Origin: Eledone cirrhosa
Taxonomy: Eukaryota
Assembly (NCBI GenBank): GCA_964016885.1
Contig: OZ024740.1
Coordinates: 101,432,001 to 101,496,000 of the forward strand
Direction of reading: 5' to 3'
DNA length: 64,000 bases
A program made the position numbers and the translations under genes. Shown here piece after piece: positions 891 to 56,100 of the stretch. The first letter of the stretch is position 1, and every line of letters begins with the position of its first letter. The notes below the pieces were generated by a model that saw only the letters and a program-made list of their open reading frames with translations, did no database searches and had not been told where the DNA came from.

Positions 891-1229
891 CATGTATGTA
901 TGTATATATTTATTTAGGTTTGTTGATTCACCACTGGATAGAACTGGGCATTCCGTATGGTCAACCTTGATGTAAAATTAGGGAGAGCACTAAGTACGGA
1001 GTTAATTATTATAAAATAACAGGAGGCTGGACTGGTGTAATTCGATAAAAGGTTTTTTATACTATAATCATTTCAATGACCGGGTTCGGTATGAATTCGG
1101 TGATATCATCATGTATTCGAAATATAACAAAGGAATATAATAGACAAAATACATGGGGCTGACAATCAGAGACATGAGGGCGACCGAACATTTAGCAGCT
1201 TCTACCCCGGTTGGCCACCCTCAAGTCAC

Positions 1230-2205
1230 TTGCTTTGAGAGCCTTGGGAGAGGGCTCCAACACTGATGGCATCTACCTTGATTTCAGCAAGGCCTTTGAT
1301 AGGGTTGATCATAAGTTTCTACTGAAAAAACTATCCAATATTGGTCTCTCTGGAAAGTTACTACAGTGGATCAAATGTTTCCTGACAGACAGAACCCAAC
1401 ATGTTTTAGACGAAGGAGTAAAATCAAGCCCTGCCAATGTCAGCAGTGGCGTCCCACAAGGCACTGTGTTGGGCCCACTTCTTTTCATCATCTACATTAA
1501 TGAAATTACTGACATCATCAAGCACAGCAACGTAAAAATCTTCGCAGATGATTCCAAGCTCCAAAGGGCCATTAATGAGGTGGGTGACGGGACTTGGCTT
1601 CAGTCAGATTTACTGGCTGTTATCCAATTGGCAGAAAAGAATAATATGCTGTTGAATGAGGATAAGTTTGAATTAATCCACTTTGGAAAAAAGGATGCTC
1701 TGAAACTACCATACTCTCTTCCTTCAGGTGAAACTCTAGTGGCATCCAATAACATCAGAGACCTGGGAGTAATTGTGGACAACAATATAAGCTGGGCCAC
1801 TCATATAAACAGCAAAGTTGATATTGCCCGCAGAATGTGTTCCTGGATTCTCAGAACTTTCCAGTCGACAGATATCGACACTGTTATCCTTCTCTTCTCC
1901 ACTTTTGCTCGACCCCACCTTGAACACTGTTGTCCACTGTGGTCTCCCCACACGAAACAAAGTATCATGAAAGTTGAAGCACCCGAAAAGTCAATTACAA
2001 AAAAGATAGATGGCATGACAGGCCTTGACTATTGGAGTCGATTAGAAAAGCTCAACCTTTATTCTCTCCAACGTCGCCGTAAGCACTACATTATCTGCAT
2101 GATGTAGAAAATATTCCATCAGCTTTGCCCAAATGATGTTGACATCACCTTCCATGTACACGCAAGGCGTGGGCCCCATGCTATCCGCCCACAACAAAAA
2201 ACTCA
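1230..2205 (+). mobile_element. CR1/L2-group LINE, 5'-truncated RT fragment
   Basis: ORF 1211-2107 with YLDFSKAFD, GVPQGTVLGPLLF, FADD; same family as 43345-45145. Confidence 0.9.
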
Positions 2206-10047: not shown

Positions 10048-13000
10048 TCAACAGCAAAGTCTCTCTGGGGGTTTACGAGTTCTCTTGGACCGTCTTCGAT
10101 TGTCTGGTCCATACTCTGGAACAGGCAATAAGGCCTTGGGTCTGGTCTGTCTTGGAGTTAGTGGCACCATTTCCGAGATCTCCATCGGGTGATCTGTTGC
10201 AAATTCAAAAACAGTGTCTACTGCATCACCAGGTTCATTGTCTTCCTCAGTAGTGTACCGCGGTTGCAGCTGTTCCCAGTGCCGTCTCCACACCGGGCCA
10301 TGAGGTATGACCTTAACGTTGAAGCAGCGAGTACCCAATGACTTCTTAATGATTGCTGGTACCCATCGGGGATCTTTGTCTCGGCGAGGTTCGTAGTACA
10401 GTGCATACACAGGATCTCCAGCCTTGTACTGCCTGGTAACCTTAGCAACACCTGCTGAGTCCGGAGTCATCTGAGGCTTATATGCTTCCTTAGACTGCTT
10501 GCCTTGAGCGATGTGTGCTGGCGAGGGCAGCAGAGAATCAATCCTTGTCCGTATCTGCCGGTGATTCAAAAGTTCACTCGGAGAGAATCCACTGGATGTC
10601 GGTGTTCTCCGGTACTGCATCAAGAACTCTTGAAGTGCTCGCTTCGGCGGAAGAGAAGTCTTCCTCAGAGCTTGTTTGAAGGTCTGCACCAAACGTTCCG
10701 CTGCTTCGTTAGTAGCTGAGTGGTAAGGTGCCCCTGTCAGGTGCGTGATCCCACGTTCTTTGCACCAGCTCTGGAACTCCTCAGAAATAAAAGTTGGTGC
10801 GTTATCGGTGACTAGCGTGTGAGGAAATCCGAAGTGCGCAAAGTCTTCCTCAAGCAGATCTAAAGTGGCTCTGGAGGACGTGGATGACGTAGGATGAATG
10901 CATGGATACTTGGAATAAGCATCCGTGATCACCAACCAATTACTGCCCATGAAATTTATTGCGTGGTCCAGGTGTAAGCGGCTCCACGGCTTTTCAGGTA
11001 ACATCCATGGGTGAACTAGAGACTTGGGTGGCTGGTTTTGATGTTCACCACACGAATCACATTGTCGACTGGTTTTCTCTATAGCAGCATCGATACCAGG
11101 CCAATAAACAGCAGTTCTTGCCAATTGTTTCATGCGCTCCATGCCAAAGTGTCCGAGATGCAGAAGATTGAGGATCTTTGGCTGTAAGCTATGTGGAATC
11201 ACAACTCTCGATCCATGGATAAGGCATCCGTGACAGATACTGAGTGAATCCGATAACTTCCGGAACTTATTGACTTCGTCATTGATCTCAGTATTCTTTG
11301 GTGGCCAGCCTTCACGGACGTAGCGTATCACTGTAGATATCACTGGATCTTTCCCTGACTCTTGACGGAGGACGTTAGAATCGATAGGTTGGAGTTGAAG
11401 ACTGAGAGCTTTGATGGCGCACACCATGTCCATGTCTTCACCATTTTCCTTCCTGTCAAAGTCGATGTCATTACCAAATGGCAAGCGACTGAGGGCATCT
11501 GCATTGCCATGATCCGCTGTTTTCCGATATTCGATGGTGTAGTCAAACTGGTTCAGCCACAGGGCCCACCGTGCTAGTCGGTTAGCAGCGAGAAGTGGCG
11601 TCCCTTTCCTCGGACTGAACAGTGATGTCAGTGTCTTGTGGTCAGTTACGAGTATAAACTGATGTCCGTACAGATACTGATAGAACTTCTGCAAGCCAAA
11701 TATGATGGCCAGGGCTTCCTTTTGAATTTGGCCGTAGTTACGCTGTGCAGAAGTAAGAGTCTTGGACACATTGGATATTGGGCGCTCGCTTCCATCAGGA
11801 TAGCGATGAAACAGGACTGCTCCAATACCAACGTTTGACGCGTCGCAAGCCAGTCCCAAAGTTTTGTTTGGATCGAAGTGTATCAGAACTCGATCCGATG
11901 AAAGCACATTTTTCAACTGATCGAAAGCTGACTGTTCTTCATCTCCCCACTTCCAAGTAGTCGTTTTTTTCGTAAGGCAATAGAGTGGCTCTGCCATGCT
12001 GGCCAGGTTTGGGATAAACTTTCCATAGAACTAAACTCAACCTAGGAAAGACTTCAAGCTTGAGACGTTCGTTGGATGTGGCATCTTTAAAACTGCTTCG
12101 ACCTTGGATCCCTTCAGCCGACAAGGTGTGTCCAAGGTATTCCACACTGGGTAGTGTAAACTGGCACTTGTCACGGCGACATCTGAGTCCTTTGTCGCAC
12201 AGACGTGTGAACAGACACTTTAGGTTGTTCAGGTGATCGTTTGCATCTTTCCCACTGACGAGCATGTCGTCCTGGAAGACGGCCACACCAGGTAGATCTT
12301 GAGTCAGGTTTTCCATGATCTCCTGAAAGTAACCAGGTGCTGACTTGATTCCGAAAGGGAGTCGTTCCTGCAGGAGCACCCCACGGTGAGTGCTGAGTGC
12401 AAGCCTGCGTTGACTTTCTGGAGCCAGCTTGATCTGATTATAGGCATCAGCAAGATCAATCTTTGTGTATCCGAATCCACCTCCGAGCTTCTGCATCAGT
12501 TCCTCTGGGAGTGGCATTGGATGACGATGATCTGCAAGTTCGTCATTAATTCCCACAGAGTAGTCACCACAAATCCGTAGTTTGGGCTTCAGGTTGCCTG
12601 AAGTATGTGCTTTACGAATCGGTACCTCTGGCATTCCGTATTCGTTGAACTGTACTGGCTTCCAGATTCCTTTGGCGATGCCTTCTTCGTAACCTTTGGC
12701 CAAGTCATCACGAAGAGCAAACGGGACCGGGCGTGCCTTGTGAAAGACCGGTGTCGCGTCCGACTTGAACTTCACTTCCAGTTCGAAGTCATTAAGACAT
12801 CCCAATTCTTGCTTGAAGAGATCTGGGAATTCATCACACATGTGACAATCTCGTTGCATGGAAATATAGGGCTCATTTGAGGTCTTTGGATGCATCACTT
12901 CTGCACCCTCACTCTTGGCCTGGCTGTCTATGCTTTTCAATCCTAGAGCATTGTCCACGGAAATTCCCAGAGTCTGGATAGCGTTTCGTCCCAGCAAATT

Positions 13001-13156
13001 AAGATCAGGGATCTTGGTGACGATGTAGGGTATTGAATTCCGTTTACCGGTCGTTGGATCCTTGGTTTGGCCCATGAAAGTTCCCAGAACGGGCAGGTCG
13101 TGCTTGCTGGCAGATGTTTGACATCTTGCAGCTTCGGTTTTCCTAATTGTTTCCAA
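10048..13156 (-). pseudogene. pol: Gypsy pol (RT, RNase H, integrase), frameshifted near 12040
   Basis: KIDLADAY, LPFG, FQDD (RT); CDAS..GIGAVL (RNase H); H..H...CDSC and LVTDN..F (integrase). Confidence 0.92.
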
Positions 13157-14281
13157 ACTGACAAGGAAACAAAATTGCCTGTAGTAGCTGTGTCCAATTC
13201 CATTGTGAAAAGTCTGTTCTGGATTGTTATTGGCACATTCAAACTATGAGTATCGTGGGGAACTTCACCAAGGATCGCCTTGACTAGCTCAGCTTTCGTG
13301 ATTCTTTTCACGTAATTCTGTGAGCGATTATTACGTTGCTGATGTTTCTTTCTACACACCGCTTGCAAATGTCCCTTTTTGTCACAAAAATGACATTTGG
13401 CTTCTTTGAAGGGGCAGTCTGTCGCTTTGTGGGCCTTTCTACATCGGTAGCACATCTCCTGGTCTGTGGAATAAGACTGCTGATAGTTCTTTCGAGGACC
13501 CTTGTTCTTGTTCTGCTGGACCTTGTAGACTTGCTTGGTTTTGGAACCGTAAACAGTTTCCTTGGCAACCTTTGCTGCGTCTTCGGTCCCGATGGCAACT
13601 TGGACAGCACGGGCGAAATCTAGTTCTGTATCCTTGATCTTGAAAATAGCCTTCAACACAGCTTCATTATTGACAGAACATAAATCTCTGTCTTAGAGCT
13701 TCATCTTGTGGATTTGTGATCGAAGGAAAATCACAGGTAGCTGCATCCTGACATATACGTGCTGCCAGCTCCTGGAGAGTTTCGCCTGGCTTCCGTTGCA
13801 TGTCACTCCAGAACTTGAAACGTTCTCTCACAATGAAAAGTTTTGGCTCGAACTGTTCTTTCATGAAGTCAACAATTTCGTCCATTGTCAACTTGTTGAT
13901 ATTCTTAGGCGGATTTTGTTGAGCAGCCAGATTTGCAAGTTGTTTGTAGATAGCAGCCGTCTGATTAGTCAGGAACACTTGTGCCATGCGTTGCTCGGGT
14001 ACAGCGTTAGCAGCCACAAACGTGCAGAATCTTGACCAGTAATCAGGCCATAGTTCTGTTGTTGAATCAAAAGCAGCAAATGGTGGGATGAATGCTGTTG
14101 GTGTCGAAGCAACTGGCGACGCCAATAAACTCTGTTGTTCAGAATCTCGAGCACCAAACAGTTTTATCAGAGTCTCCATATCTTTCTTGTGTTGTTGCAT
14201 TTGTTGTTCCTGTTGTTGCATTTGTTGTTCCATCTGTTCTCTAAACAACTTTATTAGCTCCGCTGTTTGTTGTTCCGCCAT
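13100..14281 (-). pseudogene. gag: Gypsy gag plus protease, frameshifted near 13660 and 13110
   Basis: ATG at 14281 (MAEQQ); two zinc knuckles CYRCRKAHKATDC and CHFCDKKGHLQAVC; protease motif ELDTA. Confidence 0.88.
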
Positions 14282-14344
14282 GTTTTTGTGATAAACAATT
14301 TCCCGGCAATGTAGGTAAATCCTATCGGCGACGCCAATAAACTC

Positions 14345-14560
14345 TGTTGTATTCCTCTCGGTACTCGCAGAGAAAACACAACGAGTTATATCAAATAATT
14401 TGTGTAATTTATATGAAACAAGCAAAACGCCCCTCCTCACAGTAGCAGTCTGTGACCGAGTTTTTAATACCAACGCTGACTGACTGCCCAGGTCACGTGA
14501 TTCATATGCAAATGTGTGAGCACGTGTAAATTGAATAGAAATTTAACAGTCCATACAACA
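14345..14560 (-). repeat. 5' LTR (216 bp)
   Basis: Near-identical to 9773-10013 except a 26-bp indel and small changes; followed by gagtttatTGGCGTCGCC (PBS-like). Confidence 0.9.
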
Positions 14561-26356: not shown

Positions 26357-28112
26357 TCATCATCATCATCATCATCACCGCTAGCATGGGTTAGACAGTT
26401 TGTCCTGTTGTGGGCAGAGTCTGGTCGGCTGACCATGCCTTGCTCGTACAGGAACTGATCTGGCTTGATTTCTACAGCTGGATGCCCTTCCTAACACCAA
26501 CCTCATTTACAGTGAGTGCTGGGTGCTTTTTTGTGGAGCCTACACGTCCACTTTACAGTGTGGGCTGGGTGCTTTTTTGCCGTGGCACCTCCACCACCAC
26601 CTTGCAGTGGGGAGTGTTGGGGCATATTGTCTATATGCTTCAGCTTGTACCCATGGGAGGTCGGGTACTCTGTATTACTGCATGACGCCAGAGGTCACGG
26701 TCGTGTGTCATCGCATTTGAGAGGTGTAATTGGGTAAGGTTGGCTTTTATCACCTCATTCCAGGTCATCTTGGGTCTCCCCACTCCGCAGTTTCCATCGA
26801 CTTCTAGTGCTCTGCACCTTTTTATGCAGCTGTCATCCTTCATACGCATCACATGTCCATACCAGCACAACCGCCTCTCCTGCACACAGCATTTGATTCC
26901 TCTTATGCTCAGTCTCTCTCTCAATTCATTTATGCTTTGTCGTTCGCGTATATTACTGTTACACATCCATCAGAGCATGCAGGCTTCGTTTCTCTCTAAT
27001 CTACGTAAGTCTTCCACCTTCAGCGCCCAGGTTTCACTACCATGCAACATCGCTGTTCAGATACATGCATCATACAGTCTGCATTTCATTTTGAGGGAGA
27101 AGCCTTTTGCAGCTAGCAGTGGTAGTAGTTCCCTAAACTTCTTCCATCCCGTTCTTACCCTAGTTATTGTACTTTCTGAATACCCACCTCCGCTGCTAAT
27201 TCGGTCACCTAGGTAGCAGAAGCTGTGTACTGTTTCTACAGAGCCCTCTCAGAGATTGGTGGTACTTGTTTCCTGTGGCTGTTTGCTGCTTGCTGTCCTA
27301 GCACAGCTGCTGCATGTGAAGCCTACATTCTTAATTAAGCTTCCTGAGATCCCGCTACATCTCTTGTGTATCCATTGTTTGCATTTGGGGCAGAGAATGG
27401 AGTTCCTACCTACACCTTTCCTACATACTGTGCAAGGCCATTTCCCTGAGGGGATCTGGGTTCTGTTCTCTCGTCTACTTACAAGGACCTTAGTCTTAGT
27501 CATGTTGACTTTGAGACCCTTTCTTTCTAGTCCCTGCTTCCAAGTTTGGAATTTCTTCTCTAGTTCTACCATAGATTCAGCTATAAGTGCGGGGTCATCA
27601 GCATACAGGAGTTCCCATGGGCATCTGGTCTTAAACTTCTCCGTTATTTCCTGCAGGACTATGATGAACAGGAGGGGGCTAAGAACAGAGCCCTGGTGGA
27701 CCCCAAACTGTACGCTAAATTCCTCGCTATACTCATTGCTAATCCTAACTTTGCTGACTGCTCCCCTATACATGGCTTGTACCGCTTTCACAAGCCATTC
27801 ATCTACTCCTACTTTTCTAAGAGCCCACCAGATTACAGCACGTGGAACTCTGTCAAAGACTTTCTCAAGGTCGACAAATGCCAGGTAGAGTGGCTTACTT
27901 TTAGCTAGGTACTTTTCCTGTAACCTCCTCACAAGGAAGAGGGCATCAGTGGTGCCTCTTCCTGGTACAAACCCAAATTGCATCTCGTCTAGTTTCACCC
28001 GGTCCCTAATCAACTGTGCTATAACTCTTTCTGTTACTTTCATGACCTGGTCCATTAACTTTATACCTCTATAGTTTCCTCTATCTAGTGTATCACCTTT
28101 ACCTTTGTAGAA
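26357..28112 (-). mobile_element. RTE LINE, 5'-truncated (RT plus 3' UTR, (ATG)n tail)
   Basis: QFGFVPGRGTTDA, DLEKVFD, GVHQGSVLSP, YADD, CTVC..CPKC..H..C. Confidence 0.92.
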
Positions 28113-28592
28113 GTTGACAATGATGTGTATGTATCTATATGAATGTATGTATATGTATATATATATATGTGTATATATGTATATATATGTATGTATGTAT
28201 GTATGTATATATGTATGTGCATGTATATATGTGTATGTATGTATATGTGTATGTATGTATATATGTGTATGTATATATATATGTGTGTATGTGTATCTGT
28301 ATATATGTATGTATGTGTATGTATGTATGTATATATGCGTATGTATATATATATATATATATTATGTGTATGTATATATATATATATAGGTATGTATATA
28401 TATATATATAGGTATGCGTATATATATGTGTATGTTTATGTATATATGTATATGTATCTGTATGTATATATGTATGTGTATGTATATGTGTATGAATATA
28501 TATATATATATGTGTGTATGCATGTATATATGTGTATGTATATATATATATATATATATGTGTGTATGTATATATATATATGTGTATGTATA

Positions 28593-40731: not shown

Positions 40732-41072
40732 GGAGGCACATGGCTTAGTGGTTAAAGCATTGGCCTTGCAATCGAAAGGTTGTGAGTTCAATTCTCAGAC
40801 CGGGTGATGTGTTGTTTCCTTGAGCAAGACACTTTATTTCACATTGCTCCAGTTTACTCAGCTGTAGAAATGAGATGATAGGGACAAAGGTCCATATCAT
40901 TCCACTGCAAAGTGGTCGTGGAGGTGCCATGGCAAAAAAGCACCCAGCACTCACTGTAAATGAGGTTGGTGTTAGGAAGTGAATCCAGCTGTAGAAATCA
41001 AGCCAGAATCAGTTCCCGTCCCACCCTTCCAAGCAGGGAAAAAGCGGACGTAAAATGAAATGATGAAATGAT
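40732..41072 (+). mobile_element. tRNA-derived SINE family A, full length
   Basis: A box TGGCTTAGTGG, B box GTTCAATTC; tail shared with the RTE 3' UTR; (ATGAA/ATG)n end. Confidence 0.88.
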
Positions 41073-51232: not shown

Positions 51233-51667
51233 ATCATCATCATCATCACCGTTTTACGTCCATTCTTCCATGCTAGCATGGGTTAGACGGGTTGTCCTGT
51301 TGTGGGCAGTGTCCGGTTGGCTGACCTAGTCTTGCTCATACTGGAACTGATTTTGGCTTGATTTCTACAGCTGGATGCCCTTCCTAACACCAACCTCATT
51401 TACAGTGGGTGCTTTCTTCCGTGGCACCTACATGCCCACTTTACAGTGTGGGCTGGGTGCTTTTTTGGTGTGGTACCTCCACGAACACTTTGCAGTGGAA
51501 TGATAGGGACCCCAGTCCTATCATCTCATTTCTACAGCTGAGTAAACTGGAGCAATGTGAAATAAAGTGTCTTGCTCAAAGAAACAACACATCACCCAGT
51601 CCGAGAATTGAACTCACAACCTTTCGATTGCAAGTCCAATGCTCTAACCACTAAGCCATATGCGCCT
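51233..51667 (-). mobile_element. SINE family A with a longer RTE-type tail
   Basis: Head TGGCTTAGTGGTTAGAGC; (CAT)n tail. Confidence 0.85.
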
Positions 51668-51906
51668 ATATATATATATATATCCAATTGAGTTCTAAGC
51701 ACGTGGCTTGAATTCGCATCGGAATTCAACTGACCTGCGCATTTATTGTTTTTTGGCGTTAGTCTCTTTCCTCCTATTTTCGAGACAGTGTGAGATTTTC
51801 TTTAGAACTGCTGGACTAACAACATAGCAGCTCCCTCAAGCACTGATGGTGATTATCGCTAAATATTGATGTTGATTTGGTTATCAATATTAATATTATT
51901 GGGCAT

Positions 51907-52027
51907 CCACTGAAGAATTATAAGAGCCCACTTGTATAAGTATCTGTTGATCTTATACAAGCTTCTACATAATTTGGTATAATTTCACCCAACTTGTAGA
52001 AATCTTATAATGAAACGAGTCGTCTGG
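51907..52027 (+). ncRNA. Type I hammerhead ribozyme, canonical core, branched stem II
   Basis: CCA-CTGAAGA-ATTATAAGA...TCTTATAAT-GAA-ACG-agt-CGT-C-TGG; GUC site after 52024. Confidence 0.78.
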
Positions 52028-52199
52028 TAAGTGATGTATTTGATATATCTCATATGAAATGATATAGCCAATTCTCCACACAATACAATATAGTTAGCAC
52101 CCCGAATGTTTAATTAGGAATATACTCAGGTATTTCCTAATGTTTGTTGAGTGAGTTGGAATTTGGCCGGAGTATCGCTATTAGCTTTCTCCCTTTATG

Positions 52200-52258
<59 letters not shown>

Positions 52259-54573: not shown

Positions 54574-55395
54574 CAAGGTTTAGCAAATAAGAAAAAGTTT
54601 CAAAATAAATTTCAAAAAATTCACTGTATTCACTATGGTTACCTTTACCGAATCGGTTTCGAGTCTCAAAAATAAATGGACAGTCCTTGCGGCCTTCCAT
54701 TGAAAAGATAAACTCTCGTCAGAAGGTGCTTTACACTCAGAGAATATAAAATTCCCGAGTTCAAATTACGAACCGGCGCTATTCAAAATTGTTCCCGAGA
54801 TGAGAATGAATGATGTGGAAGCAATTCTGTCCAGTGCCATGTGTAAAGATAGAAGCAGAGGCAGGGAGGTCAGTCTACTACCACTATAAATAGCAGCAGT
54901 CAAAACGACCAAATTTTTTCTCGACCAAGAGGAGAATAATAATAATAAAGTATATATACCTACACACAAAAAGTGTCCAGGGACATTGTCCAACCATATG
55001 CCAATGTGGTTCAATGGCAGGTTAATAAATTAACGAGCCAGAACATATATAATCAAGGTTTAGCAAATAAGAAAAAGTTTCAAAATAAATTTCAAAAAAT
55101 TCACTGTACTCACTATGGTTACCTTTATCGAATCGGTTTCGAGTCTCAAAAATAAATGGACAGTCCTTGCGGCCTTCCATTGAAAAGATAAACTCTCGTA
55201 AAGGTAACCATAGTGAGTACAGTGAATTTTTTGAAATTTATTTTGAAACTTTTTCTTATTTGCTAAACCTTGATTATATATGTTCTGGCTCATTAATTTA
55301 TTAACCTGCCATTGAACCACATTGGCATATGGTTGGACAATACATGTGTCCCTGGCCGCTTTTTGCGTGTAGGGATATATACTATATTATTATTA
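54571..55395 (-). mobile_element. Retrozyme-like non-autonomous PLE cassette: 480-bp unit, partial tandem copy and inverted arm
   Basis: Direct repeats start at 54571 and 55051; inverted arm 55198-55395; (TA)n flanks; no credible ORF. Confidence 0.8.
54641..54727 (-). ncRNA. Type I hammerhead ribozyme, canonical core, extended stem II capped by GCAA
   Basis: ACCTT-CTGACGA-GAGTTT...AGACTC-GAA-ACCG-att-CGGT-A-AAGGT; GUA site. Confidence 0.85.
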
Positions 55396-55537
55396 TATAT
55401 ATATATATAAACCATCATTTTCATCACCATTTTATGTGTTATTTCATGAATTCATAGGTTGGGACACACACACAAGAAAATTAGGTTTTTAAAAAAAAGA
55501 AAGAAAAAAATGAGATGTCCTACACAGGAGAAAGTAT

Positions 55538-55768: not shown

Positions 55769-56100
55769 CATCATCATCATCACCATACGTCCGCTTTTCC
55801 CTGCTTGCAAGGGTGGGACAGGAACTGATTCTGGTTTGATTTCTACAGCTGGATGCCCTTCCTAACACCAACCTCATTTACAGTGAGTGCTGGGTGCTTT
55901 TTTGCCGTGGCACCTCCACGACCACTTTGCAGTGGAATGATAGGGACCCCAGTCCCTATCATCTCATTTCTACAGCTGAGTAAACTGTGAAATAAAGTGT
56001 CTTGCTCAAGGAAGCAACAACACATCACCTGGTGTGAGAATTGAACTCACAACCTTTCGATTGCAAACCCAATGCCCTAACCACTAAGCCATGTGCCTCC
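55768..56100 (-). mobile_element. SINE family A, full length
   Basis: Reverse complement of 40732-41072. Confidence 0.88.

Follow-up and report, generated by a model that had tools for sequence, protein, structure and literature searches.

The window analysed here, that is, the whole stretch of 64,000 nucleotides taken from Eledone cirrhosa (contig OZ024740.1, positions 101,432,001 to 101,496,000), carries between two (TA)n tracts a truncated copy of a dispersed non-coding repeat, and within this copy a hammerhead motif whose stem II opens into a three-way junction. The features of the locus, together with a second hammerhead found further along the window, are as follows (coordinates are those of the window):

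51667..51682, no strand: (TA)8 tract, 5' junction
51680..52206, plus strand: 5'-truncated copy of a ~700-bp non-coding retrozyme-like repeat (L001), aligning to monomer positions 181-707 at 97%
51900..51904, plus strand: predicted pseudoknot, 5' strand (UGGGC), lying shortly before stem I
51907..51909, plus strand: stem I 5' strand, CCA, pairing with TGG (3 bp in the window copy; 4 bp in the family, 51906-09)
51910..51916, plus strand: catalytic core C3-A9 (CUGAAGA), varying between subfamilies at N7 alone
51917..51925, plus strand: stem II 5' strand, 9 bp (ATTATAAGA)
51926..51930, plus strand: predicted pseudoknot, 3' strand, formed by the junction strand GCCCA (complementary to UGGGC)
51931..51961, plus strand: hairpin 1 of the three-way junction, 10 bp (51931-40/51952-61)
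51963..52001, plus strand: hairpin 2 of the three-way junction, 7-bp stem (51963-69/51995-52001) with a 25-nt variable loop
52003..52011, plus strand: stem II 3' strand (TCTTATAAT), pairing with 51917..51925
52012..52015, plus strand: core G12-A15.1 (GAAA)
52015..52023, plus strand: stem III, self-complementary (ACG/CGT), as a monomer 3 bp with a 3-nt loop, as a dimer 8 bp around one G-G mismatch
52024, plus strand: C17 of the GUC triplet, with cleavage predicted 3' of C17 from the hammerhead consensus
52025..52206, plus strand: stem I 3' strand and ~180-nt tail up to the fixed 3' insertion end (median 179 nt, IQR 177-184, 105 motifs)
52196..52244, no strand: (TA)n tract, 3' junction
54642..54734, minus strand: second long-stem-II hammerhead, with a 55-nt unbranched stem II domain, in a different repeat family

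The hammerhead motif and its fold

A sequence-only reading had placed a hammerhead at this site, and all of its coordinates are correct base by base. The motif has the type I core (CUGANGA, GAAA and UH) surrounded by three helices with stem I open, and these helices are 90-98% paired in 109 aligned copies. Its description as a canonical hammerhead goes too far: stem III is short and palindromic, as in dimer-type hammerheads, and the canonical loop 1-loop 2 contacts are absent; instead of the canonical metazoan type I layout (6-bp helix I, 4-bp helix II and conserved loop 1-loop 2 contacts), stem I has 4 bp and stem II has 9 bp and opens into the junction. The exact core pattern with a spacer of 91-115 nt has 168 matches in the 3.0-Gb genome and none for a reversed control, and a chance origin of the motif is excluded. 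Among 120 metagenome matches to a similar core pattern, none combined a stem I of at least 3 bp with a stem II of at least 5 bp, and none was homologous.

RNAfold predicts the three-way junction for 51917-52011 (z = -2.88, 2/200 shuffles being equally stable), with pair probabilities of 0.79-1.0. The minimum-energy fold of the window copy, however, lacks stems I and III, and its hammerhead fold lies 7.3 kcal/mol above this minimum, as against 1.7 for the copy L002. Given this energy gap, and since both bases of the outer stem I pair carry changes private to the window copy, this copy is probably a poor ribozyme itself, a weakened monomer.

As had been anticipated, standard models overlook this fold: a search of the window with Rfam at gathering thresholds gave no hammerhead, nor did one of the island at E <= 10. 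Weak Rfam matches to mir-7371 and snoZ7 were far below the cut-off and were dismissed as chance.

The repeat carrying the motif

The motif had been described as lying in an ORF-less island of about 520 bp between (TA)n tracts. The lack of a long ORF and the tracts on both sides are as described, but the island is not a unique locus: it is a truncated copy of a mobile element, which that description had overlooked. The genome holds 4081 first-look candidates for this repeat, of which 40 were scored, the 39 other copies being 93-97% identical. Copies share their 3' end at a (TA)n tract and have variable 5' truncation points, and at 13 of the first 30 loci this 3' end recurs 183 bp upstream, forming partial head-to-tail tandems; some loci hold more than two units, while the window copy is single. 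A coding role was ruled out, since the longest stop-free frame in the ~700-bp monomer is 71 codons.

The repeat combines the non-coding tandem units of non-LTR retrozymes, each with a type I hammerhead, with features of non-autonomous Penelope-like elements (PLEs), namely truncation at the 5' end, partial tandems, (TA)n targets and a 3' end at a fixed place beyond the hammerhead. The same architecture is reported for Penelope-like elements (PMC8557442, PMC11167929) and for non-LTR retrozymes (PMC7229834; preprint 10.64898/2026.07.22.740005). Judging from these sequence features, the repeat likely behaves like a non-LTR retrozyme, that is, as a non-autonomous Penelope-like element. At the monomer junction, for example at ~1300-1370 of L004, a possible 3' splice site followed by an ATG and then by a GTATGA resembling a 5' splice site, just beyond the insertion end, could be seen by eye; these signals might be left over from the 5' intron and the beginning of the ORF of a PLE.

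Autonomous elements of the Neptune type are present in the genome. Five of them (L102, L103, L107, L110 and L113), some with open frames of more than 800 codons, have a short hammerhead with a U3-A8 core variant ~1 kb past the stop codon. The genome has 10595 first-look GIY-YIG candidates; in the 30 GIY-YIG loci and the 20 loci of ten kb that were compared, no DNA homology of the repeat to an autonomous PLE or its pLTR was detected, and one 210-nt piece in L117 was read as a separate insertion. PLE protein fragments occur in 9/250 repeat loci, none of them upstream on the same strand of the window family. As no autonomous parent was found among the loci examined, we infer the partner of the repeat.

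Subfamilies and covariation

Three subfamilies (A, B and C), 76-86% identical, were found using wider patterns and a divergent seed. The alignment (A1) comprises 109 copies, obtained from 126 distinct copies after the removal of 16 with internal indels and one duplicate locus. Homologs keep the core and the pairings, as had been required of a real fold: the core differs among the six subfamily majorities at N7 and H17 only, and 94.2% of the cells are paired, compared with 91.7% in shuffled and 34-45% in slid alignments. Variable columns are rarer among paired, pseudoknot and core positions (9/75) than outside them (140/523; Fisher p = 0.004), and in the loops they amount to 17/42.

Double-change cells number 81 versus 20.8 in shuffles, an excess that is inflated by the kinship of the copies, while the number of pairs showing a double change (7 versus 6.2 expected in shuffles) is unexceptional. 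The double changes segregate by subfamily, with one for each of stem I (C-G to U-A), stem II (A-U to G-C, 13 copies), hairpin 1 (51935:51957, U-A in 21, C-G in 26 and unpaired in 59 copies) and hairpin 2 (U-A to C-G, 19 copies), and these four compensatory changes amount to about four events. The perfect 10-bp hairpin that had been reported is present in the window copy but is a subfamily trait, given the 59/109 copies unpaired at the position above; many copies have an A-A mismatch in this hairpin, the top of which is variable. Aligned pairs of stem III show no double change in the 109 copies. RNAalifold returned no structure for all 109 copies, and for the six majority rows it recovered the junction without stem III. 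On this comparative evidence, the hammerhead motif with its long branched stem II is under selection for structure. In four copies (L064, L091, L168 and L170) stem II is that of subfamily A and stem III resembles that of subfamily B, which suggests intermediates or template switching.

Across subfamilies, stem III is self-complementary in three different forms, with a self-duplex of -9.6 to -14.7 kcal/mol and no stable hairpin alone. A short palindromic stem III is the mark of dimer-type hammerheads (PMC4209133, PMC6466107), and PLE hammerheads with a palindromic helix III act as dimers (PMC4209133); the window family, with its short palindromic stem III and tandem copies, corresponds to this PLE/newt type.

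A predicted pseudoknot in the window family and its relatives

The junction strand GCCCA is identical in all six subfamily majorities, has an unpaired probability of 0.91-0.95 in the nested fold and can form with UGGGC a duplex of -7.5 kcal/mol. This predicted pseudoknot has at least 5 bp in 70/109 copies and at least 4 bp in 89/109, subfamily B having 4 bp, so that 89/109 copies can join the sides of stems I and II by the 4 bp or more that define pseudoknotted hammerheads, the covariation of this pairing being confined to sister families. Within the window family, the 109 copies show no compensatory change in the pseudoknot, only a C-to-U wobble.

Sister families were recovered with two looser patterns, which gave 1823 and 2957 matches in the genome versus 14 and 31 in controls. 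Among the matches listed, most are hammerheads with a palindromic stem III and a stem II domain of 45-65 nt made of a basal stem, an internal loop and an upper hairpin. The pseudoknot idea was derived from these data and was tested on partly the same loci, then on loci fetched later. For 144 motifs in 18 clusters (1.06 Mb of loci), the flank 5' of stem I pairs better with the internal loop (5' side) of the same cluster than with the loops of other clusters (0/100000 permutations), and in 13 hand-collapsed groups the own-pair run is 4.7 bp versus 3.1 bp across groups (0/200000 permutations), although these p-values overstate independence because groups and copies are related, and 4/13 collapsed groups score only 2-4 bp. 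In the CCATGG family (30 copies), one pseudoknot pair is C-G in 18 copies and U-A in 12 with none discordant (0/30), and the next pair is U-A, G-C or A-U in 18, G-U in 2 and unpaired in 10.

Since complementarity between the flank and stem II recurs with other letters and covaries in the sister families, the insert in stem II is most likely a docking scaffold. The suggestion that it is a protein-binding or regulatory module is supported by no test; the evidence favours a structural role, in which the insert presents a single strand able to pair with the stem I flank.

Most sister families have no second hairpin in stem II. A second family with a three-way junction (845-bp unit, 2259 candidates) has only three G-C pairs at the matching place of the pseudoknot; it is young, its copies being 98-99% identical (L021:630-770, plus strand; L271-L300), and is possibly a distant relative of the window family. 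The 1823 and 2957 pattern matches represent two large superfamilies with a long stem II (L122-L151 and L241-L270), which show many visibly covarying stem II variants; one of the two occurs in tandem arrays of 457-470 bp, e.g. G000:C1:156425779-156427677. Hammerhead-like motifs with a rod-shaped stem II of ~90 nt were also seen, at L104:-1812, L105:+3985 and L253 with no evident pseudoknot, and at L117:+9318. In the window, the second hammerhead-bearing repeat (54642-55500, minus strand) has a tandem and inverted arrangement, with relatives in L143, L183 and L014.

Tentatively, these families may together form an undescribed hammerhead subclass with thousands of copies in about ten families, in which a stem II domain of 45-95 nt would use a pseudoknot to dock onto the flank of stem I and, where it forms a three-way junction, would act as a switch tying dimer cleavage to the loading of Penelope protein; we regard this broader proposal as less probable than not.

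Proposed mechanism and alternatives

The reading that we prefer, with a confidence somewhat above even, is that the window holds a truncated copy of a ~700-bp repeat likely moving as a non-autonomous Penelope-type element, the type I hammerhead of which is predicted to act as a dimer and to cut after C52024; its branched stem II is likely a scaffold for the 5-bp pseudoknot with the stem I flank. In multimeric transcripts two palindromic stem III sequences would pair and so build a double hammerhead, and the pseudoknot would hold stems I and II side by side, replacing the loop 1-loop 2 contacts. Cleavage after C17 would release monomers, which may circularise. A Neptune-type reverse transcriptase/endonuclease would nick (TA)n DNA, and copying would begin ~180 nt 3' of the cleavage site on a template that is still intact, either uncleaved or circular, and would yield both 5'-truncated inserts and inserts longer than one unit. 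Because any insert with the ribozyme crosses the scissile bond, this template would be uncleaved or re-ligated. Stem I-II pseudoknots raise hammerhead activity (PMC3088659); counting against the mechanism, 8/9 Xenopus retrozyme dimers were uncleaved in vitro (10.64898/2026.07.22.740005).

The 5' ends of the copies show no clear pile-up at the cleavage site (60 loci versus 41 reverse-strand loci in 30-nt windows); of the 22 distinct loci listed, only 2 begin precisely at U1.1, and 11 begin at an ATAT microhomology close by. A cleaved-template signature was rejected as there is no clear excess of 5' ends at this site. The same result keeps alive the reading that the pseudoknot is an attenuator, lowering rather than raising cleavage, which we consider unlikely. 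It would also fit the fact that each ribozyme-containing copy was copied across the scissile bond, and the finding that in an anole PLE the main insertion substrate is unprocessed RNA (PMC11167929); in addition, stem I (4 bp and 1 nt) is short relative to the 9-bp stem II and may misfit the active geometry, stem lengths being known to matter (PMC3088659). On the other hand, the core is strictly conserved, the majority of the stem I-II pseudoknots that have been tested are activating (PMC3088659) and intact junctions are equally explained by a circular template.

Slightly less probable again is that the PLE protein or a host chaperone binds the branched domain, above all its hairpin 2, and thereby turns cleavage on. 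Hairpin 2 is additional to the one-hairpin design of the sister families, yet keeps a compensatory pair, the second family also has a three-way junction, and the anole PLE hammerhead cleaves only with its own protein (PMC11167929). The loops, where recognition sites would be expected, are however the most variable part, the second hairpin is missing from most sister families, and the protein-binding region of the anole element lies downstream of the ribozyme (PMC11167929). A decayed passenger, i.e. inherited inverted repeats with no current function, is very improbable: the 3-bp stem I and favoured alternative fold of the window copy and the U-U at the first stem II pair of subfamily A2 would agree with decay, but this applies to single copies and not to the lineage, U10.1-U11.1 is a known tolerated natural variant (PMC3088659), and changes fixed between subfamilies spare the core and the pairs and are compensatory.

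Comparison with known hammerheads

Retrozymes, dimer hammerheads and stem I-II pseudoknots are already known. The hammerhead of satRPV (sBYDV), a plant satellite RNA, has an extended stem II, a bulge of which pairs with loop 1, and cleaves via a double hammerhead; in both respects it resembles the window motif, the bulge-loop 1 pairing being reported as attenuating. It is not known to have a three-way junction, and we assume its sequence to be unrelated to that of the window motif.

Like metazoan non-LTR retrozymes (PMC7229834; 10.64898/2026.07.22.740005), the repeat is built of tandem units that are non-coding and contain a single type I hammerhead, co-occurs with autonomous PLEs and has a unit (~700 bp) within the reported 51-972 bp. 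Unlike theirs, its unit exceeds the characterised circles of 170-400 nt, its copies are mostly truncated and dispersed at (TA)n, and its stem II domain is branched and 95 nt long instead of a 4-bp hairpin, without canonical loop contacts. With PLE hammerheads, including min-HHRs (PMC4209133), it shares a 4-bp stem I, a stem II longer than usual, a palindromic stem III for dimer cleavage and the position of the motif shortly upstream of the insertion 3' end; theirs, however, have helix II hairpins of 6-8 bp without tertiary contacts, in contrast to the junction and predicted pseudoknot found here, and the present repeat lacks an ORF, with no parent pLTR found among the loci compared.

In pseudoknotted hammerheads (PMC3088659), human C10orf118 among them, the sides of stems I and II are likewise joined by a tertiary contact made of Watson-Crick pairs; such pseudoknots occur in about 40% of representatives, repetitive type I motifs having been omitted from part of that analysis. 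Theirs involve a terminal loop or tail beside short stems, whereas here the predicted partner is a junction strand inside stem II, 9 bp from its base, and the motif belongs to a high-copy repeat and has a dimer-type stem III. The discontinuous Clec2 hammerhead (PMC6765202) is likewise a natural hammerhead with a large insertion, but is a single-copy motif of an mRNA 3' UTR, with halves several hundred nucleotides apart and no conserved branched stem II. In the literature available to us, including the reviews PMC6765202 and PMC6155905, no account came to light of animal repeats in which a long or branched stem II presents a pseudoknot strand.

PLE-associated hammerheads have been described as minimal, slow and devoid of tertiary contacts, while their non-autonomous relatives here keep a large covarying domain and a predicted base-paired contact. 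Designed mutations could disrupt this pseudoknot and rebuild it, so that what cleavage contributes to PLE and retrozyme mobility becomes directly testable. With thousands of such motifs in one genome, and both of those in the window missed by Rfam, retrozyme counts based on short-stem descriptors are probably too low.

Other features of the window

Three tRNA-like heads (Rfam 29-36 bits) lie at 51593-51665 and 56034-56091 on the minus strand and at 40741-40798 on the plus strand; these are probably tRNA-derived SINEs, and one of them adjoins the 5' (TA)8 tract of the element. The intervals 10048-14542 (minus strand), 1196-2107 (plus strand) and 27249-28361 (minus strand) hold frames resembling the reverse transcriptase (RT), RNase H and integrase of LTR retrotransposons and two further RT fragments, one of which has a PHD finger.
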